Assembly (NCBI GenBank): GCA_963666285.1
Contig: OY762711.1
Strand: one strand, 5' to 3'
Length of the DNA: 64,000 nt
From: Sedimentisphaerales bacterium
Lineage (GTDB): Bacteria > Planctomycetota > Phycisphaerae > Sedimentisphaerales > SM23-30
The position numbers and the translations under genes are program-made. Below are positions 42,344-60,649 of the stretch, piece by piece. A model generated the notes under the pieces. It was not told the origin of the DNA and ran no database searches. It saw only the letters and a list, made by a program, of their open reading frames with translations. Numbering within the stretch: the stretch's first letter is position 1; every line of letters starts with the position of its first letter.

Positions 42344-42580
42344 GACGAGTTTCTGTTCTTAATATTTGTCGCGGACTAATATTTGCAACTCCATCTTAAA
42401 ATGTTAATATTTTTGTCTAGACAATGGGGAGGGGTACATATTATAGCTTCTATTTAACACGCATATTAGGCTTATAAATGCGCCAAAAAAGTGGATAAAA
42501 TCATATAATATCTTGACATACCACTTAAGTTTGACGATATTTATAATAATATGTAAATTATATTGATTCAGGGAAATACA

Positions 42581-43888
42581 ATGACAACAGAAATAGCTAT
42601 AATGAACAAATCTGCTGTAGCATTAGCAGCGGATAGTGCCGTAACAATTAGCACACGATCACCTCACCGTAATGGACAAAAGATACTAAATAGTGCTAAT
42701 AAATTATTTTCTCTATCAAAATACGCCCCAATAGGATTAATGATATATGGAAATGCTAGCATGCTTGGTATTCCATGGGAAACTATTGTAAAAATGTACC
42801 GTAAAAAATTGGGGCAAAAACAGTTTAATTATTGCATTGATTACTGCAACGATTTTTTTAGTTTTCTTGACAAGTTTGACGTTTCTGAAGAACTTCAAGA
42901 GCAATATGTTGCCATGGGAGCCTTTGGTTTATTCCAACAAATAAAAGATGAACTAGACAAGTGGGCAGAAACTCAAATATCACAAAACAAACATGTTACT
43001 CCAAATATTGTTAAAGCCAAACTTAAGGATCTGATATCTGAAAAATACAAAGAGTTTCTTGAATATGGAAAACAATCAGTTTTTTCTAGCTCGAAGAGAT
43101 CTGGACTTAGGAAGAAATATAATGCTATAATAAAAGAGATAGCCAAAAAGGTGTTTGAAAAACACCCTCTTACAGAATTGCAACATTCAAACCTTTTGAC
43201 GATTGCGATTAATGCTGCATCTATTGGACCAATGGATCAATCAGGAGTTGTGATAGCTGGATTTGGTACAAAAGAATTATTTCCTAGTTGTTACAGTTTT
43301 GATGTTGCTGCAGTATTTGCTGGCAAAACTGTCAAAAGAGATGGAAGAAAGCAAAATATAACAAATGACAACAGCGCTGTCATCATACCTTTTGCACAAT
43401 CAGACGATGTCAAAACATTCATGGAAGGAATAGGACCAATGCTTGAGTTATTCCTAAAAAATGTTTTTTATAAAATTATGACCCAAACATTACCTGACCG
43501 ACTTCGTAATGATATTGGCGACAAGCTTGAACTAAATGAAAAAGAGAAAAATGAATTCCGAAAAATCACAAGCCAAATGTGCAAAGGAGCTTGTGACGAA
43601 GCTTTTATGGAATTAAGAAAGCAACAACAAAGATACTATATAGACCCTGTTGTACAAGCAACTGGTTTTTTAAATGTATCTGAATTGGTTGCGATGGCAG
43701 AAACCCTCGTAAACCTTGTCTCTTTTAGAAAACAAGTATCGATGGAATCAGAAACCGTAGGTGGCCCTATTGATGTAGCAACTATAACAAAAGGAGACGG
43801 CCTTGTATGGATTAAAAGGAAACATTATTTTCCACCAGAATTAAATCACCACTTTTTTGGAAGATATTTTGAAGAGGTAAAATTATGA
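42581..43888 (+). CDS. Hypothetical protein, proteasome-beta/Ntn-hydrolase-like
   Basis: N-terminus (M)TTEIAIMNKSAVALAADSAVT, ANKLF, C-terminal ETVGGPIDVATITKGDG. Confidence 0.55.
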   Translation: MTTEIAIMNKSAVALAADSAVTISTRSPHRNGQKILNSANKLFSLSKYAPIGLMIYGNASMLGIPWETIVKMYRKKLGQKQFNYCIDYCNDFFSFLDKFDVSEELQEQYVAMGAFGLFQQIKDELDKWAETQISQNKHVTPNIVKAKLKDLISEKYKEFLEYGKQSVFSSSKRSGLRKKYNAIIKEIAKKVFEKHPLTELQHSNLLTIAINAASIGPMDQSGVVIAGFGTKELFPSCYSFDVAAVFAGKTVKRDGRKQNITNDNSAVIIPFAQSDDVKTFMEGIGPMLELFLKNVFYKIMTQTLPDRLRNDIGDKLELNEKEKNEFRKITSQMCKGACDEAFMELRKQQQRYYIDPVVQATGFLNVSELVAMAETLVNLVSFRKQVSMESETVGGPIDVATITKGDGLVWIKRKHYFPPELNHHFFGRYFEEVKL

Positions 43889-44364: not shown

Positions 44365-46146
44365 TTACTTATTGAAACCCTTGTGGTTCATAAATTCCCA
44401 AATGCGATCCATCCAGGTATAGCTGCCCGTACCAGGAGCGGCCGTCCTCTGAAAGCAGTGATTGCGTCCGACGAGCGTGTGGAGATCGGACTGAATTCCC
44501 ATCCGACGAAGCTGCTCCCAGCATTTCACTGAATTCATCGCCGCCCAACCATCATTATCACCGTGGATAAACAGGATCGGACACGTCGCGACATCGAACG
44601 AGAACTCAGGGACGAGCCGCGCATCGTCTTCGTTGCCGCCGTTTGCGTTCGGGGATTGCTCGCCGTCTGTGAGCGCATACGCCGGGTAAATCGCGACCGC
44701 CCACTGCACGTTACAGGAAAGCTTGTCAAGGTCGTCGATCGGCCAATAAGAACGGTGTTTCGAGCTGGTCGCACCCATAAGTGTCAGATGTCCACCGGCC
44801 GAGGAGCCCATTATGCCGATGCGGTCGGGGTCAAGCCCCTTGGCTGCTGCCTGGCTGCGGACGATTCGTACGGCTCGCTGCAGATCCTGCCACGCCGTTG
44901 TGTGCTTGGCCAGCCCACCCTGCGGACGCGGCGTGCGGTATTTCATCGTCACAACCGTCATACCCTTTTCGTTCAGGTAACGCCGCGCCGGTGCAACTTC
45001 AAATCCGTCCGGACCATTATCCATATAGCTGCCGCCCGAATAGATAATCTGGATTGCATTGGCCTTGAGTTCCTTCGGCATATGCCACTCGATATATGGC
45101 ACGCACTGATTCGTCTGCATATCCGGCATCTTGCCTTCCGGCCAGACCGCCTCCTTGTAGTATTCGCCGCGTGCATCGTTGTTCGGATAGCGAGCCATCA
45201 GATCGACTTCATTACCAAGACGCCCGTCAAAATTCATCTGACGGACAAACTCGGCGACACGGTCGAGCCAGTGGTCATAGGCGGTGCCGTCCTCGCCCTT
45301 GTCCGGGTTGCCCATGAACCCGTGGGGACGATCCGCAAAGAGATGAATCTCGGCCGGGATTTTCATCCTGCGGAGCTGGCGGTAGATCTGCGTGGAGCCG
45401 TTCGGCGAATATATGTCGATCCCGCCATGGAAGAGCGACATCGGACACGTCTTCTCGTCGAACTTGAACACGTCCGAGAGCTTTACATCGATCGCATCAC
45501 CCTCACGCGTGTTGGGGCCGGTAAGCCCGTCCGTAAGCGCGTAGGCGGTATATATCGGCACAGCCCAGTTTACGTGACACGGAAGCTGATCAAGTTCGTC
45601 GATCGGTCCATACGCCGGTGTAAGTGAACTTGTCGCCAGCAGAACCGTCAGGTGCGAACCGGCAGAGAACCCGAGCACGCCGATCTTTTCCGGGTCGAAT
45701 CCACGTTTCATCGCATCGTTGCGGACTAGCCGAACGGCGCGTTGCCCATCCTCCCACGCACTCTGGTAGATCGGCAGCCCTTGCGGACGCGGCGTACGAT
45801 AGGTAAGACTCACGCAAACGAAACCGAGTTCGGTAAACTTCTTTGCGACCCGGTCAATCCACTCCCCGTCGCAACAACACTGATAAGCGCCGCCAGAAAT
45901 AAACAACATGCATCCGCCGTTTTTCTCCGCAGGCGATTCATACCAGTCGAGATACGGCATCGTATAGTCTGCCGCCTTGAATCCTGGAGCATTCACTTCC
46001 TGGGTGGTAGCTGCTATCTGACCGGTCTGAAAATCCGGAATCTGTCCTTCCGGCCACAACGCGACCCGCTCCCCGGCAAACGCCTGAACGACAACCAGTA
46101 ACAAATAACAAAGAAACGCTGATAGATGTTTTGCTTTTATTTTCAT
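44365..46146 (-). CDS. Secreted tandem alpha/beta-hydrolase (carbohydrate esterase-like, two domains)
   Basis: Signal peptide; GFSAGSH and GSSAGGH nucleophile elbows; internal duplication; visibly GC-rich. Confidence 0.85.
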   Translation of the reverse strand: MKIKAKHLSAFLCYLLLVVVQAFAGERVALWPEGQIPDFQTGQIAATTQEVNAPGFKAADYTMPYLDWYESPAEKNGGCMLFISGGAYQCCCDGEWIDRVAKKFTELGFVCVSLTYRTPRPQGLPIYQSAWEDGQRAVRLVRNDAMKRGFDPEKIGVLGFSAGSHLTVLLATSSLTPAYGPIDELDQLPCHVNWAVPIYTAYALTDGLTGPNTREGDAIDVKLSDVFKFDEKTCPMSLFHGGIDIYSPNGSTQIYRQLRRMKIPAEIHLFADRPHGFMGNPDKGEDGTAYDHWLDRVAEFVRQMNFDGRLGNEVDLMARYPNNDARGEYYKEAVWPEGKMPDMQTNQCVPYIEWHMPKELKANAIQIIYSGGSYMDNGPDGFEVAPARRYLNEKGMTVVTMKYRTPRPQGGLAKHTTAWQDLQRAVRIVRSQAAAKGLDPDRIGIMGSSAGGHLTLMGATSSKHRSYWPIDDLDKLSCNVQWAVAIYPAYALTDGEQSPNANGGNEDDARLVPEFSFDVATCPILFIHGDNDGWAAMNSVKCWEQLRRMGIQSDLHTLVGRNHCFQRTAAPGTGSYTWMDRIWEFMNHKGFNK

Positions 46147-46680: not shown

Positions 46681-47226
46681 CTATTCTGGAAATTGTATAT
46701 ACTCCACTGGCACACTTTCTGTCAGCCAGACATTATTAGTTGAAATATAGAAGGCAAAGTCATCTTTTTGCATTGTTCCAGCAAGAATTTCTAGCAGAAC
46801 CGGTTTACCGTACCTCTGTCCAACGGCAAGAGCGGTATCTTTATCATGTGACAAATGCACATGGTGACGGTTACCTTTTACTAAGCCTTTGGCACGTATC
46901 AAATCAAGATTTTTCAAAGCCGTACCATGATAAAGAATCTCAGGCGGTTCTGCCGGACTATAACCCAGGTCGACCTTAACAGAATGGCCCTGACTGGCAC
47001 GAATCATAGATTTATCATCATTAAACTCGAACCGCTTTTTATCATTACTGCCGACAATATGACATAGCCTGTCAAACCAAATAGAATAACCGTTTTTGTC
47101 TATTTTAGACAGCAGCTCATCAACCGGTACCCAACCGGCATCATCAAGAACAACACCGGCATCATCCGGCTTATGCCTGAGAATGTAACTCAGATATTTA
47201 CTTATCTGTTTATCATCTTTACTCAT
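46681..47226 (-). CDS. kptA: RNA 2'-phosphotransferase Tpt1/KptA
   Basis: SKYLSYILRH, KKRF, IRASQGHS, YHGT, HVHLS. Confidence 0.95.
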   Translation of the reverse strand: MSKDDKQISKYLSYILRHKPDDAGVVLDDAGWVPVDELLSKIDKNGYSIWFDRLCHIVGSNDKKRFEFNDDKSMIRASQGHSVKVDLGYSPAEPPEILYHGTALKNLDLIRAKGLVKGNRHHVHLSHDKDTALAVGQRYGKPVLLEILAGTMQKDDFAFYISTNNVWLTESVPVEYIQFPE

Positions 47227-47241
47227 TTTTATATCCCATTC

Positions 47242-47760
47242 TTATCCTATAATACTGTAAAGCATACAATACAGTTTGATATCAACAGCACATCCCTGCT
47301 GCTGCTTCTCTTTTAACCAGTCGAATACATCACCAACCGGTACTTCATGAATCCGGATATTCTCCGATTCGTCACCGCCGCCGGGTGATACTTTTGTCAG
47401 GCCGGTTGCCTTGAATACAGTTACAAGTTCATCGCTTAAGCCGGGAGATATTACACCTTCAAACAAGAATGTCATCTTTTGAGCTTCGTAGCCGGTTTCT
47501 TCAAGCAGTTCACGACGGGCGGCCAGTTCATATGCTTCATGCTCCTGGCCGGGAATATCGCCGGCAAGACCGGCAGGAAATTCGATAACATCCTTGCCAA
47601 CAGGAGGACGGTACTGCTGGATCAATACAAGCTTGCCATCATCAGTAACTGGAATTATCCCGACAATGCCGGAAAGATTTTTCCTGGTAACGTATTCCCA
47701 GTTGCCAAGCTTCACAAGATCCATGAAATGGCCTGAATAGACTTTTTCCGGTTTATTCAT
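47242..47760 (-). CDS. Nudix hydrolase, ADP-ribose pyrophosphatase-like
   Basis: QYRPPV...EFPAGL, AARRELLEETGY, SPG, DESENI. Confidence 0.88.
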   Translation of the reverse strand: MNKPEKVYSGHFMDLVKLGNWEYVTRKNLSGIVGIIPVTDDGKLVLIQQYRPPVGKDVIEFPAGLAGDIPGQEHEAYELAARRELLEETGYEAQKMTFLFEGVISPGLSDELVTVFKATGLTKVSPGGGDESENIRIHEVPVGDVFDWLKEKQQQGCAVDIKLYCMLYSIIG

Positions 47761-47784
47761 TTAATGATTCCTTTATATTATCAT

Positions 47785-49017
47785 TTAATTATGTAAATGC
47801 AATTGCGGGCTCTTATCATCAGCGATCCTGATCAGCTTGTCAGGATTTTGATATTGAGCCACGAGATACCGAGTCAAATCAACCTGCATGCCTTCAATTG
47901 CCTTGAGATAGTTGACCTTTTCGTTATTTGTCGCCTGCAGGTGCTTAACTTCTTCGGCATTAGCTGCCTGCAGATACCGCAACTCTAATTCATTACTATT
48001 CTGCTTAGCGGCCAGTTCACATTTCTGCTCGGCTTCCAGCTTTCTCAAGGTCTCTTCATGGGCAAGCTTTTCCAGTTTGAGCTTATGCTGCTGACTTTTC
48101 TGCTCCATTTCCTGTTTTTGAAGATCTCGCTGGGCCTCCCGCTGCAGCTTCAGGTCTGCCAGTTCCTGTGCCTGGGATTCGGTTTCGGCTTCAAGTTTCA
48201 GCCTAGTCCTGGTTTCGATAGCGTTATTATGCATTTCCTGAAGCTTGTCATTTGCCTTGTAGCCGCGATATACCACCTTGTTGATCTTATAACCGATCCG
48301 CTGGGCACGATAGTTAAGATTTTCGAAGGTTTCCAGCTTATTCAGCTGTTCAATATGCTGCTTGAACCCTTCAAAACTCAGGCCACTGACAAAATCAATT
48401 ACATCAGCTGAGACAGCATTAATGAAATCTGCAATTGGATCGTGGGTCTGGTCCAGCATCTTTTCGACTTCAACCAGTTCGAAAAAGATCATCAGCTTAA
48501 CCTCTACCAGGGCATCGTCACTGGTTCGCACCCTGCTGACATCGTAATACATCTGGTCGGGTATGGTACGCAGCCTGGAAAAGTTTAATGCTCGTGGTAT
48601 CTTGCGATACGGATCTTTGGGATCAGCTCCATGCCAGCTGAATTTATGCAGCCATTCATTTTCGCAAGGCACATATACAGCAGGCCCGCTCAACACCCGC
48701 CTTGCAACAGTTTCATCGGTTCTTTTATAAACAACCACGGCTTCATGTGAGTTGATCGCCAGAGCCTGCTTGACGTCTATTTGCTTATGGTGAACCGGAT
48801 CGTACCAGACCGCAGCCGGTCCCGCTATATTTTCACAGTGACCATCCTGATATTCAACTGCCAGATACTGCTCAGAACCGGCACTGAAATGAACCATATC
48901 CTGAATGGTACGATCATAGATAAACATCCGTCTCGGGCCGTCTACAAATTCAACTTTACCTTTTCTATCCCACACAGCAATCCGCTGTCCATCTTTAACT
49001 GTAACAAAACCAAACAT
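47785..49017 (-). CDS. Short major-vault-protein-like / SPFH-domain protein
   Basis: Three GP-ending beta repeats, an SPFH/shoulder-like domain and a long C-terminal coiled coil. Confidence 0.7.
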   Translation of the reverse strand: MFGFVTVKDGQRIAVWDRKGKVEFVDGPRRMFIYDRTIQDMVHFSAGSEQYLAVEYQDGHCENIAGPAAVWYDPVHHKQIDVKQALAINSHEAVVVYKRTDETVARRVLSGPAVYVPCENEWLHKFSWHGADPKDPYRKIPRALNFSRLRTIPDQMYYDVSRVRTSDDALVEVKLMIFFELVEVEKMLDQTHDPIADFINAVSADVIDFVSGLSFEGFKQHIEQLNKLETFENLNYRAQRIGYKINKVVYRGYKANDKLQEMHNNAIETRTRLKLEAETESQAQELADLKLQREAQRDLQKQEMEQKSQQHKLKLEKLAHEETLRKLEAEQKCELAAKQNSNELELRYLQAANAEEVKHLQATNNEKVNYLKAIEGMQVDLTRYLVAQYQNPDKLIRIADDKSPQLHLHN

Positions 49018-49031
49018 AACTTACCTCAATT

Positions 49032-49982
49032 CTATTGTTGATAAATACGTTCATAAAGCTGATTAGCCAGCGTATCAATATAACCAATTCCTTTTGGCCC
49101 ATTTTCACACATATCAATAAGATGTTGCGGGATAGCTTGTATCCCTAAATGAGTTCCGCATATAGCACCTGCCATAGCAGCAACCGTATCAGTATCATCA
49201 CCTAAGGATATTGCACGGCCAATTACATTCCCATAACTGTCCGGCTCAATAGAAAAGCAGGCAATAGCGGTAACAACTGAACGGTGAGCTTCCAAAGAAC
49301 TTCCCAATGATGACAGCAGTGTATTTCCAAGTTCAAGATTTTCGGCAACAGACAAAAGCCAGTGATATTCTTCTTCTGAAACATAAGTTTTCAGGTCATC
49401 ATAAAATGCTTGTCTATTAAAAACAGGTTCACGGACCATATGGGCAATTGCTGCGGCAATAAGAACAGCACCTTCAATACCTAAAGGGTGAACATGAGTT
49501 GGAGCAGCTGACAAATATACTTGTTCTTTAAGTTTTTCTTTATCATTGCTAAACATAAGCCCCAGCGGAGCTACTCGCATGGCAGCTCCATTACCATAAG
49601 AACCACCAGGAAAAAGGGTATTGGTAAGAGTTTGCCAATCGCCGCCAGTAGCCATAGCGTCAAGGATCTTTCTGCAACCTGCACCATAACCTCGATTTTC
49701 TTCGTAGTTACTCACAAAGTTATTGCATAAAGTTTCGGTTACGATCTCACCATGTTCAATCAATGTCTCAGCAACACTTATCATCATTTGAGTATCATCA
49801 GTATAGAACAACTCTTCGACCGGTGGTTTGGCTACAATATCTTTACCAAGCCCGAAAGAGTCATATATTATACCAGATGAAAGCCCCTCAAAAGGAGCTC
49901 CAATGGAATCACCTACCGCAAGGCCAAGAAGACAGCCGCGAAATCTTTCAAGTTTTGTTGGAGTGTTCATAGTTCTGTCCAA
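49032..49982 (-). CDS. ADP-ribosylglycohydrolase (ARH/DraG family)
   Basis: GLAVGDSIG, YTDDTQM, GNGAAMR, GDDTDT. Confidence 0.93.
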   Translation of the reverse strand: MDRTMNTPTKLERFRGCLLGLAVGDSIGAPFEGLSSGIIYDSFGLGKDIVAKPPVEELFYTDDTQMMISVAETLIEHGEIVTETLCNNFVSNYEENRGYGAGCRKILDAMATGGDWQTLTNTLFPGGSYGNGAAMRVAPLGLMFSNDKEKLKEQVYLSAAPTHVHPLGIEGAVLIAAAIAHMVREPVFNRQAFYDDLKTYVSEEEYHWLLSVAENLELGNTLLSSLGSSLEAHRSVVTAIACFSIEPDSYGNVIGRAISLGDDTDTVAAMAGAICGTHLGIQAIPQHLIDMCENGPKGIGYIDTLANQLYERIYQQ

Positions 49983-50020
49983 TTCGCTATTTATTAATAT
50001 ACAATGACAAAATTCATAGA

Positions 50021-51088
50021 TTAAATATTTATCGCTTTTCTTAAGCTCGTAGGCAACGCTCTTAATGCTATATGTCCAAATACTATAAGTGCCATAAAAA
50101 CATTCCTGGGTATTATGGCAGGCCAGAAGTATTTTACAGGTTTACGGCCTGAGCTCTCATCAGCAAGCTTTTCCGCCGCCTGACATAACACGTTAACAGT
50201 GCGCGGATATTCTAGAATATTAGCTATCCATTCTTTTGGTATGCCATCTTCACCAACGGTTGCCCCGGCAAGAGCTCCGGTAATAGCACCAACAGTATCT
50301 GTATCACCACCAAGATTTAATACAGCGGTAAGTGTTGCTCGATAATCTCCATAATGCCTCAGCCAGGCATAGATTGCAACCGGTACAGTATGGTATATAT
50401 AGCCCGTAACTCTGTCGCGAAGCTCTAACTCTTTTGCAAATCCCGAAACAGTCATGCCGCTATCGAATGAATTCCCCATATTCTCTACAATAGTTTGCCA
50501 TTCCGGATCGTTATCAATACTCCTCAGCAATTCAAATAGTTCTTTACTATTCGGCTTTCTGCTATCATTTGAGATGGCAACTGCCGCTGTGTAACTAATT
50601 GCCAGTGCACCTGTCATGGCACGTGGGTCAGTATGGGTCAGCTCGGTAGAAGCTTTGGTATATTGATATATTATATTTCTATCATTTTTGAAATATGCCC
50701 CTATAACGGCACATCGCATTGCCGGGCCGTTACCAGCAGTATATATACCTGACTTTGACAATGGTAAAAAGAACCATAGTTTCAGGATTGCACGCAACGT
50801 GCCAAGCCCGATACCTGCCGGGATACCCAGCAGCCAGAACCGAAGCTTCCAAGCCAGTGACTTTTTGAAACTCTCAACATTATCAGCATGAGCAATAAGT
50901 GCCTGAAAGACAAATAGTGTATGTTCGGTATCATCGCTAACCATACCTTTTCCAAAGAAGAATCTATGCTTCCACTCCTGCCAGCCAAGCCTGGCAATGA
51001 TCGTGGCACTGAGATTCTCAGCAGGCAGACCAATCGCATCACCAACGGCAGTGCCGAGGATGAGTCCGCGTAGTTTATTATTTGTCAT
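50021..51088 (-). CDS. ADP-ribosylglycohydrolase, second paralog
   Basis: GTAVGDAIG, SDDTEH, GNGPAMR, GGDTDT. Confidence 0.92.
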   Translation of the reverse strand: MTNNKLRGLILGTAVGDAIGLPAENLSATIIARLGWQEWKHRFFFGKGMVSDDTEHTLFVFQALIAHADNVESFKKSLAWKLRFWLLGIPAGIGLGTLRAILKLWFFLPLSKSGIYTAGNGPAMRCAVIGAYFKNDRNIIYQYTKASTELTHTDPRAMTGALAISYTAAVAISNDSRKPNSKELFELLRSIDNDPEWQTIVENMGNSFDSGMTVSGFAKELELRDRVTGYIYHTVPVAIYAWLRHYGDYRATLTAVLNLGGDTDTVGAITGALAGATVGEDGIPKEWIANILEYPRTVNVLCQAAEKLADESSGRKPVKYFWPAIIPRNVFMALIVFGHIALRALPTSLRKAINI

Positions 51089-51117
51089 GTTATTGCCCTT
51101 AGCATTTTCCATAAATA

Positions 51118-51732
51118 CTACATCCTTTGAGCCTGGCTTATAATAACTCCTGCTTCTTTCATTTCTATTACAGCCTTCTCGCAATCGCCCGGGCTTAATT
51201 CTACACCTCGGCAACCATCTAAGACAACAGTTGTCTGGTAGCCAAGAGAGACAGCATCAAGAGCAGAGAATTTTACACAATAGTCTGTTGCCAGGCCAAC
51301 AATGCAAACTTCATCTACGTCCTGAGCTTTCAGATAATCATCCAAGCCAGTTGATTTCCGGCGGGCATTGTCAAAGAAGCAGCTATAGCTGTCTATATTA
51401 GGGTCGGTACCTTTGTGAATAATTTTGTTAATCTTATCGACATCCAAACCGGCTGCAAATTCTGCTCCACCGGTTTGTTGAACGCAGTGGTCAGGCCATA
51501 GTATCTGCTGCAAGCCGTCAAGTTCTATCAGATCACCTATATTTTTACACTCATGCTGGCTGGCGAATGATTTATGCCCGACTGGATGCCAGTCCTGGCT
51601 GGCAACTACCAGATCATACTTATCCATTAAAGCATTTGCTACCGGAACAACTTTATCACCATCGGTTACTGCTAACGCACCACCGGGGATAAAATCATTT
51701 TGAATATCTATAAGTATCAATACCTTTTTCAT
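51118..51732 (-). CDS. pncA: Nicotinamidase
   Basis: DIQNDF, DWHP, WPDHC, GLATDYCV. Confidence 0.95.
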   Translation of the reverse strand: MKKVLILIDIQNDFIPGGALAVTDGDKVVPVANALMDKYDLVVASQDWHPVGHKSFASQHECKNIGDLIELDGLQQILWPDHCVQQTGGAEFAAGLDVDKINKIIHKGTDPNIDSYSCFFDNARRKSTGLDDYLKAQDVDEVCIVGLATDYCVKFSALDAVSLGYQTTVVLDGCRGVELSPGDCEKAVIEMKEAGVIISQAQRM

Positions 51733-51748
51733 TTTCGTAACTCTCTTT

Positions 51749-52438
51749 CTATATTTCAAAATTAAAACCCTGTTTAACCAGCTGGTCATATTTCTTTTTA
51801 TCGAAACTGTACAAACGGGCAGCACGATGCGATACATCAGTTTCAATCTCGTCAAGCTCTTTAAGGATGTCCATACTCAGTATCTTTTTCCTGAAATTGC
51901 GTTTATCCAGTTTACGATCCAAAACCTGCTCGTATAAATTCTGCAGCTGACGCAGGGCAAACTTGTGCGGCAGCAATTCAAAGCCGATCGGCTGATAACG
52001 AACTTTGCCGCGTAATCTTTCCAGGGCAGTAGATAATATCCGGTCGTGATCAAAGGCAAGAGCGGGTATGTCTTCCAGGGCAAACCATGCTGCCTTGCTG
52101 GCATCTGTTGCCGCCTGGACCTTATGATCGACAAGATTGACAAGAGCATAATGCGCTACTGTCACAACATGCTCTCTCGGATCGCGATCTGCCTCGCCAA
52201 AGGTATACAGCTGCTCCAAAAAGATATCCTTCACACCTGTTTCCTCCATAAGCTCACGACGAGCGGCATCTTCCGGAGATTCGCCAACATGGACAAAACC
52301 GCCTGGCAAAGCCCAGCTCCCGGCATAAGGTTCTAACGCCCTCTGGATAAGAAGTATTTTCAGTTCATCTTCATCCAGGGCGAATACCACACAGTCAACT
52401 GTCAGTGCCGGTCTTGCATATTCGTATTGAAAGCTCAT
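51749..52438 (-). CDS. nrtR: NrtR regulator (Nudix + wHTH)
   Basis: [38 protein letters not shown]. Confidence 0.92.
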
Positions 52439-52477
52439 ATACTGTTCCTTTAATCTCTAAATTTACAAATCAAAACT

Positions 52478-52518
52478 TAGTGTCTCATTTACACTATTAT
52501 GGTGTCAAAATTACACTA
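52478..52518. promoter_or_regulatory. Tandem NrtR boxes
   Basis: TAGTGT-N7-ACACTA (52478-52496) and TGGTGT-N7-ACACTA (52500-52518); GT-N7-AC core. Confidence 0.85.
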
Positions 52519-52589
52519 TGTCAAATTAAAAAATTATCTCTATCCATAAAATTAAACTTAAACATTTTAACATCAACCACTTAAAGTAA

Positions 52590-54551
52590 TTATTTATTTT
52601 GCATTTCATTCAACTCTCGCCTATAGCCGCCAGAAAGAATGGGGAACCTACACCAGGTTTTAGGGTCCAGATTCTTATCATCCACATGAAATGAAGGTGC
52701 ATACCTTTCTCGTTTCCATTGATTGCGGCACCAGAGAGAAAAGAAACGTTCAACCCAGATTATCAGCTGATCCCGGCTATACTGGTCAAATTGCACAGCA
52801 ATAATGTCTAACACCTCCAATGGAGTCATTTTATCTCGAATTGCGGCACACTCACAGGCATCCAGCAGGCCATAAGGCATAAGATCATCTTCATCTGTTT
52901 GAGATGCATCCTGCGGACGCAATTCAGCTGTCGGAATCTGCTGATTAACACATTTCAATGATTTGACAGGCTCAATACCAAGCGGCCCATCGACCTCCAT
53001 CCATCTTAGCCACTGACGCAAAAATGCCTTGTCGATGCCCGCAATCGGGCTTAACCCGCCACAGGTATCACCATCCATGGTAGCATAACCAACCGCCGCT
53101 TCCGAACGATTGCTGGTTGACAATAACAGAGCATTTTTCAGGTTCGCCAGCATCCACACGCCGGGAGCTCTTACCCTGGCCTGTATGTTTTGCAATGCGA
53201 TATCATCAGTTTCCCAGGTAAGTGACCTGCCAAAGCTTTCTTCTACAATTTTGATATAACCTTTCACAAGATCATTAACATCAAAAACCATAAATTCAGC
53301 TCCAAGGTCTTTGGCAAGAGTCTCCGCTGAATTAAGCGTTGTTTCACTACTGTTTTCCGTTGCCTGATAAACACAGGTTAATAGTACCGATAACAAATTA
53401 TCCATATCTATATTCTTCAACCCAGATTTTGCAATAAAACCATCGACACCAAGCTCTTTAACTGCAAATTGCACCATTAGCGACACAAGCACAGCAACTG
53501 CAGAAGAATCTGCCCCGCCGCTCAGCGAGACGATAAAACCCTGAGACCTGCTTTTTCGCATATAGTCAAACAAACCCAAAGCTATAGCCCTGGAAAATTC
53601 TTCTTCTTTTTTACAATCACTATTTTCCCAATCAGATATATTTATATCTTGCTTCTCTGGCTTTTGAGTTGGGAATTCAAACGAAACATCAACTATATTA
53701 CCCACATTGCTGCAAGCTTCATAGTTACTACCGCTTTTAGCCTGGGCCATCCTGCTTTCATCAATATCCACAACTGCGGCAGTAAGATGATAATTGCCAA
53801 AAACAAATCTCGGCCCTGCTGAAATAAGTGCTCCGTTTGATGCTATCAAAGCACCACCATCATATATCGCGCGCCCGGCTTCATTGCCAACCAGGTTACT
53901 ATAAATATACGAGACGCCAAATGCCCTTGACCCTTCGAGAACAAACCGCTTTCTGACCTCATGTTTGCCAAATGCAAAATGGCTGGCACTTGGATTCATT
54001 ATTATATCTATTCCCTGTGAATATAAATTGCCGCCGGGACGCTTGGCAACCCAGGCATCTTCACATATTTCGAAGCCTAGTTTCACCCCGTTTACATTAA
54101 AGATAATATCGCCGATAGGGTAATCTTTACCATCGTAGCTAACAGTTTCAATATCACCTTCCGGCCATGGTCTGAACCACCTGGGTTCATAATGCAGGCC
54201 TTCACGAGCGAGGAATCGCTTGGCTACAAAACCCCTTATTTCACCATCAACAACAAGACATATTGTATTAAACAGGCTATTGCGATGCAAAACAGGCAGG
54301 CCCAGAGTTACAATGATACCTTTTGTTTCAGGAAGTATCTCTGCTAAAACCTGGCGAGCCATCCTTCTTAAACCGGCTGAATAAAAGGCATCCTCGCAGC
54401 CATAACCACTAATTGCAAGCTCCGGCAAACATAAAACACTAACACCACAATCTCGAGCTTCTTTGATTGCAGCAATAATATTTGCCTTATTATTATCCCA
54501 ATCTAAAGGTGTCTGGTTTATTATAGCAGCACCACATTTTATCAATTTCAT
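52590..54551 (-). CDS. nadE: Glutamine-dependent NAD+ synthetase
   Basis: Nitrilase domain (PEL, EICED), SLSGGADS, QNIQAR, NQWKR. Confidence 0.95.
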   Translation of the reverse strand: MKLIKCGAAIINQTPLDWDNNKANIIAAIKEARDCGVSVLCLPELAISGYGCEDAFYSAGLRRMARQVLAEILPETKGIIVTLGLPVLHRNSLFNTICLVVDGEIRGFVAKRFLAREGLHYEPRWFRPWPEGDIETVSYDGKDYPIGDIIFNVNGVKLGFEICEDAWVAKRPGGNLYSQGIDIIMNPSASHFAFGKHEVRKRFVLEGSRAFGVSYIYSNLVGNEAGRAIYDGGALIASNGALISAGPRFVFGNYHLTAAVVDIDESRMAQAKSGSNYEACSNVGNIVDVSFEFPTQKPEKQDINISDWENSDCKKEEEFSRAIALGLFDYMRKSRSQGFIVSLSGGADSSAVAVLVSLMVQFAVKELGVDGFIAKSGLKNIDMDNLLSVLLTCVYQATENSSETTLNSAETLAKDLGAEFMVFDVNDLVKGYIKIVEESFGRSLTWETDDIALQNIQARVRAPGVWMLANLKNALLLSTSNRSEAAVGYATMDGDTCGGLSPIAGIDKAFLRQWLRWMEVDGPLGIEPVKSLKCVNQQIPTAELRPQDASQTDEDDLMPYGLLDACECAAIRDKMTPLEVLDIIAVQFDQYSRDQLIIWVERFFSLWCRNQWKRERYAPSFHVDDKNLDPKTWCRFPILSGGYRRELNEMQNK

Positions 54552-54580
54552 AATACACCTGCTAATATACAAACTTATAT

Positions 54581-56047
54581 TTATTCGTTTCTGGCTTTTT
54601 GAATAAGATCTGTCTTAAATGCATGAAGCTGCTTCTCTAAACCCGCCGGATATTCATGAGGGTTAACAAACCTTTTTATACCGGCATGCAGGCAAGTCAA
54701 CTGCTGCAAACATCTTTCACGGGCTTCATTTGCCTCTAAAGGCGTATAAATACATTTACCACTTCGGAAAATCGGCTTGAGCATATCTTCAAACCGTGTA
54801 TTGGCTGGTATGGTTTTATGCCTTGTATGGTCTTTATTATCCACAATTACAGCCGGCACAGATATACCCATCTGCTCATCAAATATCGCATCTGCAATAA
54901 AACCATTTTCATTACAAAAGCGTCTGACCTGCTGGATACCGGGCACACTAACCTTAATAGCCTGTTCAGACAGTTTAACCTTGTATTGCCAATCTTCACC
55001 TGGTTTCCTTATGGCCGCTAATTTATACACCCCGCCCAAAGCAGGTTGGTCGTATGCAGTTGCCAGCTTGGTACCAACACCCCAAACAGCTATTTTTGCC
55101 CCCTGGTCTTTCAGGTCCTTGATAATATTTTCATCCAGGTCATTACTGGCAACAATGGCGGCACATTCAAAACCGGCGGCATCCAGAAGTTTACGAGCTT
55201 CTATACTCAGATATGCCAGGTCACCTGAATCCAGGCGAATACCAACCATTTCATGACCTTGCTCTCGCAGCTGTTTGCCAACATTAATAGCCTTCCTAAC
55301 ACCTTCGATTGTATCATAAGTATCAACCAGGAAAACGCAATTATTCGGCATGGCCTGGCTATACGCTTCAAAAGACTGCTGTTCATCATCAAAAGACATC
55401 ACCCAGCTATGGGCATGTGTGCCTTTAACAGGAATACCAAACAGCTTTCCGGCAAGCACATTTGAGGTTGCAGCACTACCGCCAATATATGCCGCTCTAC
55501 TGGCAGCTAAAGCACCATCTATGCCCTGGGCACGCCTTAAGCCAAACTCCAGAACAGGCTCGCCTTTGGCTGAATGACATATACGTGAAGATTTAGTCGC
55601 GATCAATGTCTGGAAATTTACCATATTCAGAAGCGTGGTTTCAATTAGCTGGCATTGCAATAGAGGGCCTTTAACCCGAATAAGCGGCTGATTTGGAAAC
55701 ACAACCGTACCTTCTTCTACGGCATCAATATCCAGGCAGAACTCCAGATTAGCCAGATACTGCATAAAACCTTCATTAAACAATGGGTTACCATCATTAC
55801 CACAAAGCGTTGCCAGGTAGTCAATGTCATCCTGATCAAAACTCAGGTTTTCGATAAAATCAACCACATATGCCAGGCCTGCGGCAACAGTATAACCACC
55901 GCCAAAAGGATGCTTTCGGAAAAAAAGATTAAATACCGCCTCATCATCTGCCCTGTCGAGCTTCCAATAGCCATATGCCATGGTCAACTGATACAAATCA
56001 GTCAATAAAGATAAAGAACACTTATAAATACTTGTCGGCTTTGCCAT
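54581..56047 (-). CDS. pncB: Nicotinate phosphoribosyltransferase
   Basis: LLTDLYQLTM, EFGLRRAQ, GTHAHS, RLDSGDL. Confidence 0.95.
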   Translation of the reverse strand: MAKPTSIYKCSLSLLTDLYQLTMAYGYWKLDRADDEAVFNLFFRKHPFGGGYTVAAGLAYVVDFIENLSFDQDDIDYLATLCGNDGNPLFNEGFMQYLANLEFCLDIDAVEEGTVVFPNQPLIRVKGPLLQCQLIETTLLNMVNFQTLIATKSSRICHSAKGEPVLEFGLRRAQGIDGALAASRAAYIGGSAATSNVLAGKLFGIPVKGTHAHSWVMSFDDEQQSFEAYSQAMPNNCVFLVDTYDTIEGVRKAINVGKQLREQGHEMVGIRLDSGDLAYLSIEARKLLDAAGFECAAIVASNDLDENIIKDLKDQGAKIAVWGVGTKLATAYDQPALGGVYKLAAIRKPGEDWQYKVKLSEQAIKVSVPGIQQVRRFCNENGFIADAIFDEQMGISVPAVIVDNKDHTRHKTIPANTRFEDMLKPIFRSGKCIYTPLEANEARERCLQQLTCLHAGIKRFVNPHEYPAGLEKQLHAFKTDLIQKARNE

Positions 56048-56086
56048 TTTCCATCTCCTGAACAAAAATATTTAACGCTTACTTGT

Positions 56087-56105
56087 TAGTGTTAAATATA
56101 CACTA
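56087..56105. promoter_or_regulatory. NrtR box upstream of pncB-nadE
   Basis: TAGTGT-TAAATAT-ACACTA, same half-sites as the boxes upstream of nrtR. Confidence 0.85.
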
Positions 56106-56153
56106 TGCTTTATAGCGATGCAAATGCAAAATAAAAAATATTTAGAAAAAAAA

Positions 56154-57302
56154 CTACTGTTTCCTGGTAGTATGCAGATCAGCTTCGGCGGCCCACTGAT
56201 TAATATCCTGCTTGTTGATTGCGGCAGCCATAAGGTCAGGAAACAATTCCGGGGTACAGGCAAATGACGGGATGCCCATCGAGCTGAGTTTAGCAGCAAT
56301 ATTATGGTCGAAACATGGCGAGCCTTCATCACTCAAAGCAAGAAGAGTTATAAATTGCACGCCGGAAGTTACCAATGTAGCAGCTCGTTTTAGAAGTCCA
56401 TCTTCTACTCCACCTTCATACAAATCGCTGATAAGTATAAATATTGTTTCAGATGGATTTGTTATCAATCCCTGACAGTATGCAACTGCCCTGTTTATAT
56501 CAGTACCACCCCCTAATTGAGTCGAGAAAAGCAGTTCAACCGGGTCATCAAGCTGGTCAGAAAGATCGACAACTGATGTATCAAACACAACAAGCTTTGT
56601 CTGTACTGCAGGAAGAGAAGCCATAACTGCGCCAAATATGCCAGAATATACAATTGAAGTTGCCATTGAACCGCTCTGGTCGATACAGAGTATAACCTGA
56701 CGTAATGCAGATTGTTTTCTGCCGTACCCTACTCTTCTAACCGGTATTACCGTTTTATATTCCGGCTGATAGTGCTTGAGATTAAGTTTTATGGTCCGAT
56801 CCCAATCTATTTCTTTATGCTTAGGCCGATTATTTCTGGTCGCCTTATTTAATGCTCCCATAATGGCCTGCCTCATAGGGTTAGTCAGTTTATTCTGCAA
56901 TTCTTCAACTACTTTTCTGACTACCAGGCGAGCCGTTTCTTTTGTCTTTGCCGGAATAATGCCGCGCATCGCAAGCAGATTCGCAACAAGATGAACATCT
57001 GGCTCAACTGCTTCAAGCATTTCAGGCTCGGTTAGCATACGAGACATATCCAGCCTGTCAAAGGCATCACGCTGCATAACCTGAACAACTGATTTTGGGA
57101 AATATTCCCGGATATCGCCAAGCCACCTGGGAACGGATGGACAGGAACTGCCCAGGCCTCCCCTTCTATCTGAATCATACAAAGCATGCAGGGCATTATC
57201 TATCCTGATATCAGATTGCGAAAGTTCATTATTTATGCCGTCAGCCTGATCAGCCCCAAGTATTAAACGCCATCGCCTGAGTTTTTCTTCCCGGTCAATC
57301 AT
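56154..57302 (-). CDS. vWA (CoxE/YehP-like) protein
   Basis: RRWRLILG, DQSGSM MIDAS, GGGTDI, ISDLYEGG. Confidence 0.88.
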   Translation of the reverse strand: MIDREEKLRRWRLILGADQADGINNELSQSDIRIDNALHALYDSDRRGGLGSSCPSVPRWLGDIREYFPKSVVQVMQRDAFDRLDMSRMLTEPEMLEAVEPDVHLVANLLAMRGIIPAKTKETARLVVRKVVEELQNKLTNPMRQAIMGALNKATRNNRPKHKEIDWDRTIKLNLKHYQPEYKTVIPVRRVGYGRKQSALRQVILCIDQSGSMATSIVYSGIFGAVMASLPAVQTKLVVFDTSVVDLSDQLDDPVELLFSTQLGGGTDINRAVAYCQGLITNPSETIFILISDLYEGGVEDGLLKRAATLVTSGVQFITLLALSDEGSPCFDHNIAAKLSSMGIPSFACTPELFPDLMAAAINKQDINQWAAEADLHTTRKQ

Positions 57303-59538
57303 CGATCACAATTTCCTCCTGTAGAATTTTACTCAACAGCGGCAACACTTTTTTCGCACGTTCGATATCAAATGCCTGACCTGCTGACTTTTGGGCTGCT
57401 GCTGCAGAAGTGGAACTCTTTGCCTGTTGACCGATCTGTCTTCGCTCGGGCAGTGCAAAAGTTGAAAACGTTCGCTTTAGAAGCGGTAATATCTCGATAA
57501 AATGGTCAGATTTCAGGTCACATACCCACCTGTCAATTAAAGACCACAAGCTGCGGTCATGTATTAAAACCAGGCCGCTCCCCCTGAGAAAACCTTCCAG
57601 CCAGGCCGCCGCATTTACAGAATCGTTTGCAGCAGAAAGGGACAAATTCATTTTTGTTGCAGTTTCATCCGAAGAGATACTACCCCCGTCATAGAGCAGC
57701 CTGCAAGCCCTGCCATTAATTAGATTATGACCATTATTAAGATTAGTGAGTTGTTTTAAAACCAGCTCCCATCCATTAGCCAACTCGTCATCCTGCAAAA
57801 GCGATATAGCTGTGTGAGTTGAGTTGATCAATTCAAAAAAGTGTTCAGCCGCCTCATCATTGATATTACAGCAGGCACCGGGTAAATTTATCATAACACG
57901 AGAGGCAAGACCACGGACAACTTTAACCAGCATACCTTTATCTGTCTGACGAACGTTGCCATATCTCATTACCCGGGCCAGAGGGACAAGAGCTTCCATC
58001 ATCTGCTCGACATCACCACTTACAGCTGTTCGTTCCTGGATAGCAGCAATAAGAGCATTTGCAGCCTCCGGAAGATCTGCCAGTAACGCACTATCAAGAA
58101 GCATGGCGATCTCTTTTATATTTTGCATACTTTCCACGGCATTTATACATTTAGCAGATGCCGCTTTTTCAATGGTATTGCCCCAGCGTGAAGCCTGGAT
58201 AATATTAATAACAAATTCAGGCTTCCATTGAAGTTCCCAGAACTCGTGAAAAGTACCTGCTTTTTTACCATGACTATGAGATAAAGTTCCCCAAGGTATA
58301 TCAAGCAAAAGCAATCTATGCAATAAACGACTTCGCTCTAGATCATTAGGCTTCCTGAGATCAAAATCATATTCCTTACTGTCTTCTTTCACCGGAAGAC
58401 GCAGTTTCTTTTGCAGTTTAGCCAGGTCCTGCTGGATAGGTACAACAGGGGCATCCTGTGGAATCTGGCCCATCCTGCTGCCGACAATCATCTGCTTTCG
58501 AATCAACTTCATCGGAGCTTCTTCACCAAAGCACATTACGGTAAGAGCCGCTTCGTCCATCTCTTCAAGGCCGGGATGAGGATAACCGCGTATGGCAGCG
58601 AGGGTATCAGCCAAACGAACAGCTTCAATAGCATGAGCAGAAGAAACATCCAGCTGGTGCTCTCTCATCAACCTGGCAGCACGAGTCATCCAGCTGGTTA
58701 CAAGATTATTTTCACCTTCCCAAAGCATATGATACCATTCTGGCGAACGAACTCCGGCACCATAACCGGTCAAATATGAAATGCGACTATATGACCATGG
58801 TGCCCAGGCTGATTGAGTTTTTACTTTTGGCAGGCCTTTCAATAATTCATTATCGCTTTTCACTGGCGGCATGTTCAAAAATGCCGGACTATGCCAGGCA
58901 CCGCAAACGATTGCAATATTTTCAAAACCTTCCTTCTGGGCAGCCCTAAGAGTCTTTCTCATATATGCTTCACGTCTCTGCTCTAACATAGTATATCGAT
59001 CGGCACAATCAAGACATTCTCTCAATGTTGACATGCCTTCCAGAACAGCCTGAAAGATTTCAGAATCATTCTGACTGCGTGCCTCAACCATATTCTCCCA
59101 CCATCGTTCGCTATCGACATACCCGGCGGCTGTTGCTAAATAGCTGATAGGGTCAATTCGGATTTCACGCTCACCGTCTTCCTCCTGGACAATTTCAGGA
59201 GTTTCCTGTTCAATCGCCAGGACATGAAACTGCGGTAAATCCATGAATCGAACTGGAATATTATTTCGCAGGCCATACTGAATAGCCTGCCACTCCGGTG
59301 AAAAAACAGTAAAAGGATAAAATGCCGATTTCTGAGGATCATCCGGCGAATAGACGAGAAGCGCAACCGGCGGTTTCATTTCAACATTGCCGGCAAGCCC
59401 AATTTCACCTTGAGCATCTGCCGGACCTTCTACCAGGACAATATCAGGCTTGCACTCTTCCAGCGACTTGACAAGACTTTTTGCTGAACCGGGGCCGTGA
59501 TGACGGATACCGAAAATATGTAAATTGCTATCAGACAA
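57295..59538 (-). CDS. DUF5682 / YehM-like protein
   Basis: GIRHHGPGSA, FSPEWQA, REAYM, CGAWH, GYGAG; start placed at the TTG just past the AAA gene stop. Confidence 0.8.
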   Translation of the reverse strand: MSDSNLHIFGIRHHGPGSAKSLVKSLEECKPDIVLVEGPADAQGEIGLAGNVEMKPPVALLVYSPDDPQKSAFYPFTVFSPEWQAIQYGLRNNIPVRFMDLPQFHVLAIEQETPEIVQEEDGEREIRIDPISYLATAAGYVDSERWWENMVEARSQNDSEIFQAVLEGMSTLRECLDCADRYTMLEQRREAYMRKTLRAAQKEGFENIAIVCGAWHSPAFLNMPPVKSDNELLKGLPKVKTQSAWAPWSYSRISYLTGYGAGVRSPEWYHMLWEGENNLVTSWMTRAARLMREHQLDVSSAHAIEAVRLADTLAAIRGYPHPGLEEMDEAALTVMCFGEEAPMKLIRKQMIVGSRMGQIPQDAPVVPIQQDLAKLQKKLRLPVKEDSKEYDFDLRKPNDLERSRLLHRLLLLDIPWGTLSHSHGKKAGTFHEFWELQWKPEFVINIIQASRWGNTIEKAASAKCINAVESMQNIKEIAMLLDSALLADLPEAANALIAAIQERTAVSGDVEQMMEALVPLARVMRYGNVRQTDKGMLVKVVRGLASRVMINLPGACCNINDEAAEHFFELINSTHTAISLLQDDELANGWELVLKQLTNLNNGHNLINGRACRLLYDGGSISSDETATKMNLSLSAANDSVNAAAWLEGFLRGSGLVLIHDRSLWSLIDRWVCDLKSDHFIEILPLLKRTFSTFALPERRQIGQQAKSSTSAAAAQKSAGQAFDIERAKKVLPLLSKILQEEIVIDD

Positions 59539-59539
59539 A

Positions 59540-60649
59540 TTACAGAATCTCCCTGCATGATCGATATATATCTTTCCAGCCATCCCGTTCTTTGACTACA
59601 GTTTCCAGGTATTCCTGCCAGACAACCGTATCCTGAACCGGGTCTTTTACAACTGCGCCGGTTATGCCGGAAGCTATATCAGCTGCCCGCAGCGTACCAT
59701 CACCAAAATGACAGGCCAGAGATAAGCCGCTAGTCATTACACTAATGGCCTCAGCGGTTGAAAGTGTACTGGTTGGAGATTTCAATTTGGTCTTGCCGTC
59801 CGTGGTCTTCCCTTCACGCAATTCCCTGAAAATTGTAACAACGCGGCGAATCTCTTCCAGGGCAGGTTTTTCCTGCGGCAGCTCGAGAGCTCTACCTATA
59901 GAATCAACTCGTTTTTGCACTATTTCAACTTCTTCATCTGCAGTAGCAGGTACCGGAAGTATTACAGTATTGAAACGACGCTTCAACGCACTTGACAATT
60001 CATTAACGCCTCGATCGCGATTATTGGCAGTTGCGATAACATTAAAACCCTGTACAGCCTGGATTTCCTCGCTGAGCTCTGGCACAGGCAATGTCTTTTC
60101 TGATAAAATTGTAATCAGCGTATCCTGGACATCAGATGGGATACGAGTTAATTCTTCCACTCGCACCATCTTTCCCGTCTGCATGGCATTCATAACCGGG
60201 CTGTGAACAAGAGCTTCGCTTGATGGACCTTTTGCAAGCAGCAAGGCATAATTCCAGCCGTAACGAATAGCTTCCTCGGGAGTTCCGGCTGTCCCCTGCA
60301 CCAGCAAAGTTGAATCGCCGCTGATTGCCGCAGATAAATGTTCGCTTACCCATGTCTTAGCTGTGCCAGGTACGCCAAGCAATAGTAAAGCTCTATCTGT
60401 GGCCAGAGTGGCAATAGCAATCTCCATCAGGCGGCGGTTGCCTATATATTTTGCACTTATCTCAAAACCATTATCTAGTGTACCACCCAGCAAATACGTT
60501 AAAACAGCCGATGGTGACATGTTCCAGTTTGACGGCCGCTGGGCTTTATCCTGTTTTATTAGATTCTCAATTTCTTCTGCAAACTGCTGTTCGGCATGCT
60601 GACGCAATACCTTTTTTGGTTCATTAGATTCCACTGTGAAGCTCCTCAA
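59540..60649 (-). CDS. MoxR-like AAA+ ATPase (YehL-like)
   Basis: GVPGTAKT, VEELTR, TANNRDRG, SALKRRF. Confidence 0.9.
   Translation of the reverse strand: MRSFTVESNEPKKVLRQHAEQQFAEEIENLIKQDKAQRPSNWNMSPSAVLTYLLGGTLDNGFEISAKYIGNRRLMEIAIATLATDRALLLLGVPGTAKTWVSEHLSAAISGDSTLLVQGTAGTPEEAIRYGWNYALLLAKGPSSEALVHSPVMNAMQTGKMVRVEELTRIPSDVQDTLITILSEKTLPVPELSEEIQAVQGFNVIATANNRDRGVNELSSALKRRFNTVILPVPATADEEVEIVQKRVDSIGRALELPQEKPALEEIRRVVTIFRELREGKTTDGKTKLKSPTSTLSTAEAISVMTSGLSLACHFGDGTLRAADIASGITGAVVKDPVQDTVVWQEYLETVVKERDGWKDIYRSCREIL

Follow-up and report, generated by a model that had tools for sequence, protein, structure and literature searches.

A 64,000-nucleotide stretch of contig OY762711.1 from a Sedimentisphaerales bacterium (assembly GCA_963666285.1), hereafter the window, carries among its genes for ADP-ribose removal and nicotinamide adenine dinucleotide (NAD) salvage one for a 410-residue protein, P0001, that is very probably a short homolog of MVP, the major vault protein. 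The P0001 gene (47785–49017, minus strand) is present as a single copy in the 6.35-Mb genome and belongs to a run of nine minus-strand genes from 56047 to 46681. The run begins with pncB, encoding nicotinate phosphoribosyltransferase (54581–56047; Pfam NAPRTase, NCBIfam above cut-off), and nadE, encoding glutamine-dependent NAD synthetase (52590–54551; Pfam NAD_synthase and CN_hydrolase). It continues with nrtR, encoding a Nudix-helix-turn-helix repressor of an ADP-ribose-sensing family (51749–52438; Pfam NUDIX and NrtR_WHD), pncA, encoding nicotinamidase (51118–51732; NCBIfam PRK11609 above cut-off), and two ADP-ribosylglycohydrolase (ARH) genes (50021–51088, with an alternative start at 51112, and 49032–49970; Pfam ADP_ribosyl_GH, E = 5.6e-60 and 3.7e-62). 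P0001 is followed by a NudE/NudF-like Nudix hydrolase (47242–47760; Pfam NUDIX, and NCBIfam NudE with E = 6.5e-15, below cut-off), a putative ADP-ribose pyrophosphatase, and by kptA/Tpt1, encoding RNA 2'-phosphotransferase (46681–47226; Pfam PTS_2-RNA, NCBIfam above cut-off). The intergenic gaps are 14–50 nucleotides, with the exception of 151 nucleotides ahead of nrtR; the P0001 gene has a good ribosome-binding site and lies 14 and 24 nucleotides from its flanking genes. An earlier reading of the letters of this DNA (the original prediction) had described P0001 as packed co-directionally with two ARH, Nudix, KptA, pncA and nrtR genes, and the Pfam and NCBIfam assignments agree.

P0001 carries GP motifs, followed by PDQMYYDV..VRTSDDA..DPIADFINAVSADV and a C-terminal LIRIADDKSPQLHLHN. 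In the AlphaFold model, built on a 129-sequence alignment, which has a mean predicted local distance difference test (pLDDT) score of 91, three beta units and a hairpin are followed by an SPFH domain and a 120-residue helix, and the chain ends in a tail of low confidence; a second fold prediction of the whole protein, from a shallower alignment, gave identical secondary structure. Residues 1–84 (48766–49017, minus) form vault repeats 1 and 2, approximately MVP repeats R7–R8 by VIA alignment and profile matches. Residues 85–148 (48574–48765, minus) comprise, by model and profile alignment, a third GP unit (approximately R9) and a keyhole-like hairpin, the strands of which (126–131 and 139–146) align to MVP residues 498–513. 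The SPFH/shoulder domain, residues 149–256 (48250–48573, minus; model and fold match), leads into a continuous helix, residues 257–376 (47890–48249, minus; DSSP of the model), that is the equivalent of the MVP cap helix. The C-terminal tail (47788–47889, minus), conserved in the family and of low pLDDT, has a short helix and then PD..IRI...LHLH, and may help to close a ring. The three GP-ending repeats named in the original prediction are real, the units matching each other with profile-profile probabilities of 95.7, 89.0 and 80.5.

The closest structural relatives of the model are MVP chains, which occupy Foldseek ranks 1–12 (E = 2.3e-15 to 1.7e-11), with flotillin next at 1.1e-7; the comparison of MVP with flotillin suggested at the outset thus comes out in favor of MVP. 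In a VIA search of 48,161 chains, MVP was again the top match (Z = 15.4, root-mean-square deviation 7.2, 379 residues aligned, model residues 2–398 on chain residues 321–786), followed by stomatin (Z = 13.1, deviation 2.4, 106 residues aligned). The MVP alignment begins at MVP residue 272 or 321 and extends to 787. The top ten VIA rows are all MVP, and only those rows cover residues 1–58, as expected if the repeats are vault-like and the protein does not group with ordinary SPFH proteins. Other SPFH proteins mostly align from residue 85, with the earliest start at 59, and in the VIA alignments nothing in stomatin, prohibitin, flotillin or HflK/C corresponds to residues 1–84; it is therefore these residues that distinguish P0001 from ordinary SPFH proteins. 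In accordance with the fold matches, every Atlas hit of residues 1–90 with a named family is Vault repeat, and the profile of residues 1–125 agrees with the repeats in annotated long bacterial MVPs (probability 93.9, E = 1.5e-7), while that of the core matches the same proteins less well (36.8%). The original prediction had the full MVP domain order, and this held for the repeats, the keyhole/SPFH shoulder and the cap helix, but the cap ring found no support: residues 350–410 gave no profile match to long bacterial MVP tails (probability 0.5), and pLDDT falls below 50 at residues 390–410.

Sequence comparison points the same way. The family profile found MVP as its five best matches among PDB sequences, all weak (E = 0.037–0.054). 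In a scan of 28 relatives, Vault_3 is above its cut-off in three and Band_7 in two, and MVP_shoulder gives a weak match in one. Single-sequence searches with P0001 gave no match in Pfam, PDB, NCBIfam or PADLOC, Pfam MVP_shoulder had no match anywhere in the source genome, and neither a narrow family profile (A2) nor an 809-residue relative reached MVP in PDB. P0001 has three repeat units, compared with the nine of the canonical vault, and at 410 residues is, as the original prediction had it, about half the length of MVP (about 890). The protein is best read, from the predicted structure, as a short, soluble member of the MVP family.

One alternative is an SPFH scaffold at the membrane surface, where a dome of the flotillin or HflK/C type would bring stress-repair enzymes together, with the repeats as an add-on and no nucleotide bound. 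SPFH proteins are the next-best structural matches (Z 11–13), a repeat-less SPFH family takes the same slot behind nrtR (see below), and eukaryotic vaults can sit on membranes (PMC13100048). Yet P0001 has no transmembrane, signal or hydrophobic helix (highest Kyte-Doolittle 19-residue value 1.31), and its N-terminus, which in ordinary SPFH proteins is the site of the membrane anchor, is made of vault beta repeats. We consider such a scaffold quite unlikely.

The regulatory setting of the P0001 gene can be read from the promoter regions. Two tandem NrtR-type operators (52499–52519 and 52477–52497, spanning 52477–52519, minus; pattern match) lie upstream of nrtR and one (56086–56106, minus; pattern match) upstream of pncB, and these palindromes fit the 21-bp GT-N7-AC consensus of NrtR (PMC2330246). 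In the 151-nucleotide gap before nrtR, the boxes overlap a sigma70-like promoter, TTGACA-17-CATAAT (52496–52524, minus), which matches at 11 of 12 positions and is the best among 38 regional sites. The three sites in the window represent a count reached in 0 of 100 shuffles (mean 0.03), a flattering result because the pattern was derived from the very palindromes observed at the locus. Exact matches in the whole genome are confined to the ADP-ribose/NAD locus; a loose pattern, with two mismatches allowed, was non-significant (6 of 100 shuffles). The survey of boxes in related loci is a better test than the shuffle count: 56 of 62 nrtR genes and 28 of 33 pncB genes are preceded by a box, compared with 4/53 pncA, 5/78 MVP-like, 0/31 nadE, 0/34 kptA and 0/44 Nudix genes. 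At the present locus, pncB-nadE and nrtR through kptA are two units, each with its own box, rather than a single operon. The NrtR-boxed ADP-ribose/NAD operon of the original prediction thus keeps its boxes and its genes, except that pncB-nadE is a separately boxed unit beyond the 151-nucleotide gap. ADP-ribose releases other NrtR proteins from DNA (PMC2330246), and the MVP-like gene is in all likelihood co-regulated by NrtR.

The association extends to relatives. Among the best 80 of 173 loci in GTDB genomes, 70 have at least one NAD/ADP-ribose gene near the MVP-like gene, which supports the conserved neighborhood that the survey proposed at the outset was to look for, and 54 have an ADP-ribose remover. 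NrtR is found in 63 of these loci, PncA in 54, ARH in 50, Nudix in 44, PncB in 38, and NadE and KptA in 34 each, with PncA, PncB or NadE in 54. Further recurring neighbors, their families read from two to four members scanned per cluster, are microbial PARG (15), NADAR (9), Macro (7), DUF4291 (6) and a nucleoside deoxyribosyltransferase-like gene (4). ARH, Macro, NADAR and PARG enzymes strip ADP-ribose from macromolecules, Nudix enzymes split ADP-ribose, and PncA, PncB and NadE rebuild NAD. The gene directly upstream of the MVP-like gene is PncA in 26 loci, NrtR in 11, ARH in 8, and KptA and PARG in 6 each; the one directly downstream is Nudix in 31 and ARH in 8. The order of the NAD/ADP-ribose genes is shuffled between loci, and 347 of 348 of their hits share the strand of the MVP-like gene. 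We note that the recurrence of DUF4291 in ADP-ribose operons (L003, L020, L026 and three more loci) is a hint to the function of that family.

In a quick tree of 74 rows, which includes half of the linked loci, the linked members are spread over several Planctomycetota and Verrucomicrobiota clades, and Bacteroidota, Acidobacteriota and Omnitrophota contribute one case each. Of the ten unlinked loci, seven (L072, L077 and L080, and also L073–L075 and L078) group in a single clade on a long branch (support 100), and their proteins have long N-termini. An MshEN domain, which we take to be a c-di-GMP-binding family, is present in three of the seven and belongs to the Gemmata/Isosphaera-type members. 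Position 150 is arginine in 67 of 70 linked members and tryptophan in this unlinked clade, a change that represents one event and is a lead only. The MVP-like gene might be a passenger, carried along by the NAD cassette but functionally unconnected with it, in keeping with its optional presence and its unlinked copies (L133, L049, L051 and the long-N-terminus clade). However, the link is kept across several clades and phyla in the quick tree while the direct neighbors reshuffle, and the vWA/MoxR gene cluster that adjoins pncB at the source locus is not co-carried (0 to 1 of 80), which makes a passenger highly improbable.

Genes for writers of ADP-ribosylation are few, with one Sir2 and two FRG genes (FRG being an ART-family domain; PMC9503650) among 36 of the 47 further in-operon open reading frames (ORFs) scanned. 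The FRG genes are directly 3' of the MVP-like gene in two loci and Sir2 occurs in one (L069:9170-9970, L071:9023-9973 and L058:10378-11073); these are the rare operons that include an NAD-consuming enzyme. Because writers are scarce, the loci fit a response to ADP-ribosylation or NAD loss imposed from outside, as has been proposed for ARH-centred systems (PMC9503650). A role in RNA-end repair, the other function offered in the original prediction, has KptA as its sole support: no RtcB, ligase or TROVE gene occurs among the neighbor families scanned, and there is no Rfam match at gathering score in window positions 40000–64000. The locus likewise shows no equivalent of the vault RNA of eukaryotes in those positions, and neither PARP4 nor TEP1/TROVE was found among the scanned neighbor families, the rest of the genome not having been searched for them.

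The strongest lead for a link of the MVP fold itself with ADP-ribose, one that the original prediction left unused, comes from human MVP, in which NAD and ADP are bound between two shoulders at tens of micromolar by R437, R504, K506, R507, P508, H509, R511, L517, D521, F522, W545, P565 and K573 (PMC12280208); ADP-ribose has been seen in the pocket of reconstituted and brain vaults (bioRxiv 2026.05.01.722283). By alignment, K139 of P0001 corresponds to K506, P141 to P508, R150 to L517, D154 to D521, F179 to W545, H192 to P565 and N200 to K573; the places of R504, R507 and R511 are taken by D132, I140 and L144, and nothing corresponds to R437. Wherever the region is present in the 80 loci, K139, D154, H192 and N200 do not vary, and the mapped positions in the operon loci are more conserved than the domain (0.85 versus 0.76). 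The sequence comparison suggests a pocket that is present in outline and partly conserved, with about even odds that it binds ADP-ribose or NAD at the shoulder. A trimer prediction of residues 1–310 with ADP-ribose (median 0.37, mark 0.42) was given no weight either way.

In our best explanation, to which we assign a probability of roughly 55%, P0001 is an optional MVP-family protein of the NrtR regulon, an ADP-ribose-inducible ring or dome that binds ADP-ribose, NAD or ADP-ribosylated substrates. A rise in ADP-ribose, caused by an ADP-ribosyltransferase or NADase that comes from a phage or a rival or by KptA turnover, would, by analogy with other NrtR proteins, release NrtR and derepress the operon. 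The MVP-like protein would then assemble through its SPFH domain and long helix (the predicted ring or dome oligomer is itself likely), and the pockets between subunits, many per assembly, may hold ADP-ribose, NAD or ADP-ribosylated substrates. The protein would thereby serve as a sink or scaffold beside the erasers and not as their required container.

Several observations weigh against this explanation. The pocket mapping comes from a weak sequence alignment rather than from coordinates; among the six basic pocket residues (R437, R504, K506, R507, R511 and K573) only K506 is matched; and in the broad family conservation at the mapped positions does not exceed that of the domain (0.62 versus 0.62). 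When 401 genomes were drawn evenly from the phylum, in the same collection as the 80 loci so that genomes may overlap, 13 had the MVP-like gene and 52 a close NrtR, both counts including the source genome. The gene is linked in only 7 of the 52 NrtR-bearing genomes and is hence dispensable, and in 6 of the 13 that carry it the 10–17 kb fetched contain no NAD gene, so that the count of 70, drawn from the best 80 of the loci, favors close relatives. In addition, the eukaryotic members of the family have no operon context to examine.

The even draw also bears on whether P0001 forms a mini-vault nanocompartment, in which two domes close as a barrel around ARH, Nudix, KptA and their substrates. At least three enzyme types are present in all six linked loci of the even draw, compared with 4 of 28 loci without the gene (the 28 best-scoring of 45 NrtR loci without a linked copy, a few of them cut by contig ends); the MVP domain order and fold are complete in P0001, and the repeat number varies like a wall-length module, with a duplicated pair at 490 residues and five matches at 809 residues. 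Against enclosure, the alignment is limited to MVP residues from about 272 or 321 to 787, so that the waist repeat R1 and the PARP4-docking repeats R3–R5 are absent, and the partner enzymes are interchangeable and often present where the gene is not (at least one ADP-ribose enzyme in 14 of those 28 loci), which weakens the picture of a cage that houses them. No shared docking domain was seen, although none was looked for. Because R1 and R3–R5 are absent and the partners vary, enclosure of enzymes is the less likely arrangement: a closed two-half barrel with enzyme cargo is doubtful, and the nanocompartment as a whole is unlikely. The MVP-like gene is an accessory of richer operons, not required for salvage or erasing.

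A closely related alternative is that P0001 acts as a holdase or chaperone for ADP-ribosylated proteins, in the slot taken by vWA, SseB and TY-chaperones in ARH-centred counter-ADP-ribosylation systems (Iyer et al. 2022, PMC9503650). Those systems, found in planctomycetes and others, share with the present locus ARH, a Nudix-HTH repressor, variable Macro and NADAR genes, few writers and patchiness, and their NrtR-type-regulated forms have interchangeable chaperones; they add phosphatases and chaperones, whereas the present locus adds KptA, NAD salvage and the MVP homolog. The patchy spread of the MVP-like gene (13 of 401 genomes), the failure to find nrtR in three of three same-genus genomes with the source nrtR as query, and the rarity of writers would suit such a role. 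However, the terms vault, MVP, SPFH and Band are absent from that paper, the loci lean to NAD salvage, and PADLOC gives no match. The idea overlaps our best explanation, the ligand being the sole difference, and in its own right is very unlikely.

SPFH domains also occur behind nrtR in another guise. A second, repeat-less SPFH family follows nrtR directly in at least 3 of the 28 loci without an MVP-like gene. Its gene (P0272) is followed by a NAD-kinase-like gene (weak matches, E = 0.002–0.03, among selected ORFs scanned) at L100:8700-10678, L124:4832-7323 and L125:761-2793, and on a plasmid (L149). The protein is barely related to P0001 (6%) and matches 57 plasmid records; its gene is divergent from a Nudix gene in Rhizobium and from an unnamed gene in Kitasatospora. 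The Rhizobium arrangement is that of nrtR<#>nrtX-nrtY, with nrtX and nrtY "of unknown function" (PMC2330246), and from gene layout the pair is probably the nrtX-nrtY of Rodionov 2008. The second family suggests that SPFH domains were recruited twice to ADP-ribose regulons.

Other genes lie near the run. The cluster directly upstream of pncB (56154–63531, minus) comprises SWIM, DUF5691, MoxR AAA, DUF5682 and vWA-CoxE genes; its vWA recalls that of PARP4, and the cluster was considered as part of the system and excluded because it is unlinked in relatives. A tandem alpha/beta hydrolase gene just downstream of kptA (44365–46146, minus; GC 52%, higher) appears unrelated. A 441-residue ORF on the opposite strand (42563–43888, plus), in a low-GC patch (34%), has no Pfam or PADLOC match, and its start (MTTEIAIMNKSAVALAADS) presumably resembles an N-terminal-nucleophile/proteasome-beta motif.

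P0001 shares with eukaryotic MVP (human 9BW5/9MXJ, rat 4V60/6BP7) the order of repeats, keyhole hairpin, SPFH shoulder and long helix, and an ADP-ribose/NAD theme that in eukaryotes runs through PARP4, the TEP1 NADase and the shoulder ligand. It differs in having a shorter helix, 12–17% identity, neither the R1 waist nor the R3–R5 PARP4 site of human vaults, and only part of the human pocket residues; its partners are erasers and salvage enzymes, whereas those of the eukaryotic vault are a writer and an NADase. The report on the TEP1 NADase (bioRxiv 2026.09.04.749371) does not use "MVP" in its available part, and trypanosome vaults (PMC12547018, as partly available) are not relevant to the present locus. 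Long bacterial and phage MVPs (Myxococcota and others; bioRxiv 872010, 2023.11.10.566534) have repeats that match P0001 by profile, and the arginine of the "YLRV" motif in long bacterial MVPs corresponds to R150; the long bacterial proteins have about 810–850 residues and pass Pfam MVP_shoulder, while the P0001 family is short. No NAD gene is among their scanned neighbors, which encode an OPT transporter, an M17 peptidase and a kinase, and the accessible part of the phage report (bioRxiv 2023.11.10.566534) mentions neither NAD nor neighbors. As a separate observation, an OPT oligopeptide transporter adjoins the long MVP gene (about 841 residues; L144–L147) in 3 of 3 loci scanned and an M17 peptidase in two.

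Compact prokaryotic MVPs are already published. Archaeal ones (PMC13607799) have 317–396 residues, with one repeat, SPFH and tail, a short architecture shared with P0001, and an Asgard MVP (PMC12962969), modelled as a decamer, has five repeats and a prokaryotic repeat-shoulder-tail plan like that of P0001; these were compared with P0001 by description only, and the parts of the two papers at hand mention no bacterial Planctomycetes-Verrucomicrobia-Chlamydiae family, NrtR or ADP-ribose context. NrtR regulons (Rodionov 2008, PMC2330246) share with the locus the regulator, the 21-bp GT-N7-AC box, the ADP-ribose effector and the pncA/pncB/nadE targets, and include Blastopirellula #pncB-nrtR-pncA; the main text of that paper, as available, names no MVP-like gene, whereas the present locus has one. 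No paper joining an MVP homolog to NrtR/ADP-ribose operons was found in the literature covered, which did not extend to subscription journals and supplements. We read the locus as a three-repeat MVP homolog in a probably ADP-ribose-responsive regulon.

The family is large: one search yielded 1264 proteins, and at 50% identity there are 1148 representatives. The closest relatives of P0001 are from Planctomycetota. Operon-linked members of about 490 residues carry a duplicated repeat pair, and family members of 677–809 residues have up to five matches to one repeat type (L024, L032; P0129, P0149, P0232); forms of 959–2735 residues were sought and none was found, which is weak evidence, and viral contigs, phage records and plasmids yielded no relative. 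Among 30 representatives that were looked up, ten come from EukProt (P0130, P0135, P0123, P0132, P0141, P0143, P0147, P0151, P0157 and P0162), from amoebozoans, breviates, a rhodelphid, a rhizarian, euglenozoans, a choanoflagellate and a dinoflagellate, for which contamination of single transcriptomes is possible; the nearest Atlas cluster is 67% eukaryotic, mainly Mollusca. Four Myxococcota-type genomes contain a long MVP as well as a member of the short family, which is therefore paralogous and separate. In eukaryotes the short family may be a second vault-protein family that has been overlooked.

The function of vaults has been debated for decades, and in 2025–2026 the MVP shoulder was shown to bind NAD and ADP-ribose, and TEP1 to contain an NADase (PMC12280208; bioRxiv 2026.05.01.722283; 2026.09.04.749371). 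The bacterial gene context is independent evidence on that function, beyond what eukaryotes can give, and the recurrent operon offers a simple test of whether vaults handle ADP-ribose. Since there are cultured carriers among the relatives (Adhaeretor, Poriferisphaera, Haloferula, Cerasicoccus and Oceaniferula) and a 410-residue protein is easily expressed, ligand binding, assembly and phenotype are directly testable; P0001 could also serve as a compact cage for engineering. A more far-reaching proposal, which we offer tentatively, is that P0001 forms a bacterial vault reduced to its minimum. Such a shell, induced by ADP-ribose, would under phage or toxin attack capture ADP-ribose or ADP-ribosylated RNA or protein in its shoulder pockets and pass them to the erasers and to NAD salvage. 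If that were true, vaults would have handled ADP-ribose ancestrally, as perhaps would soluble SPFH proteins generally, two SPFH families being present in NrtR regulons, and many protists would retain a second, overlooked short vault family.

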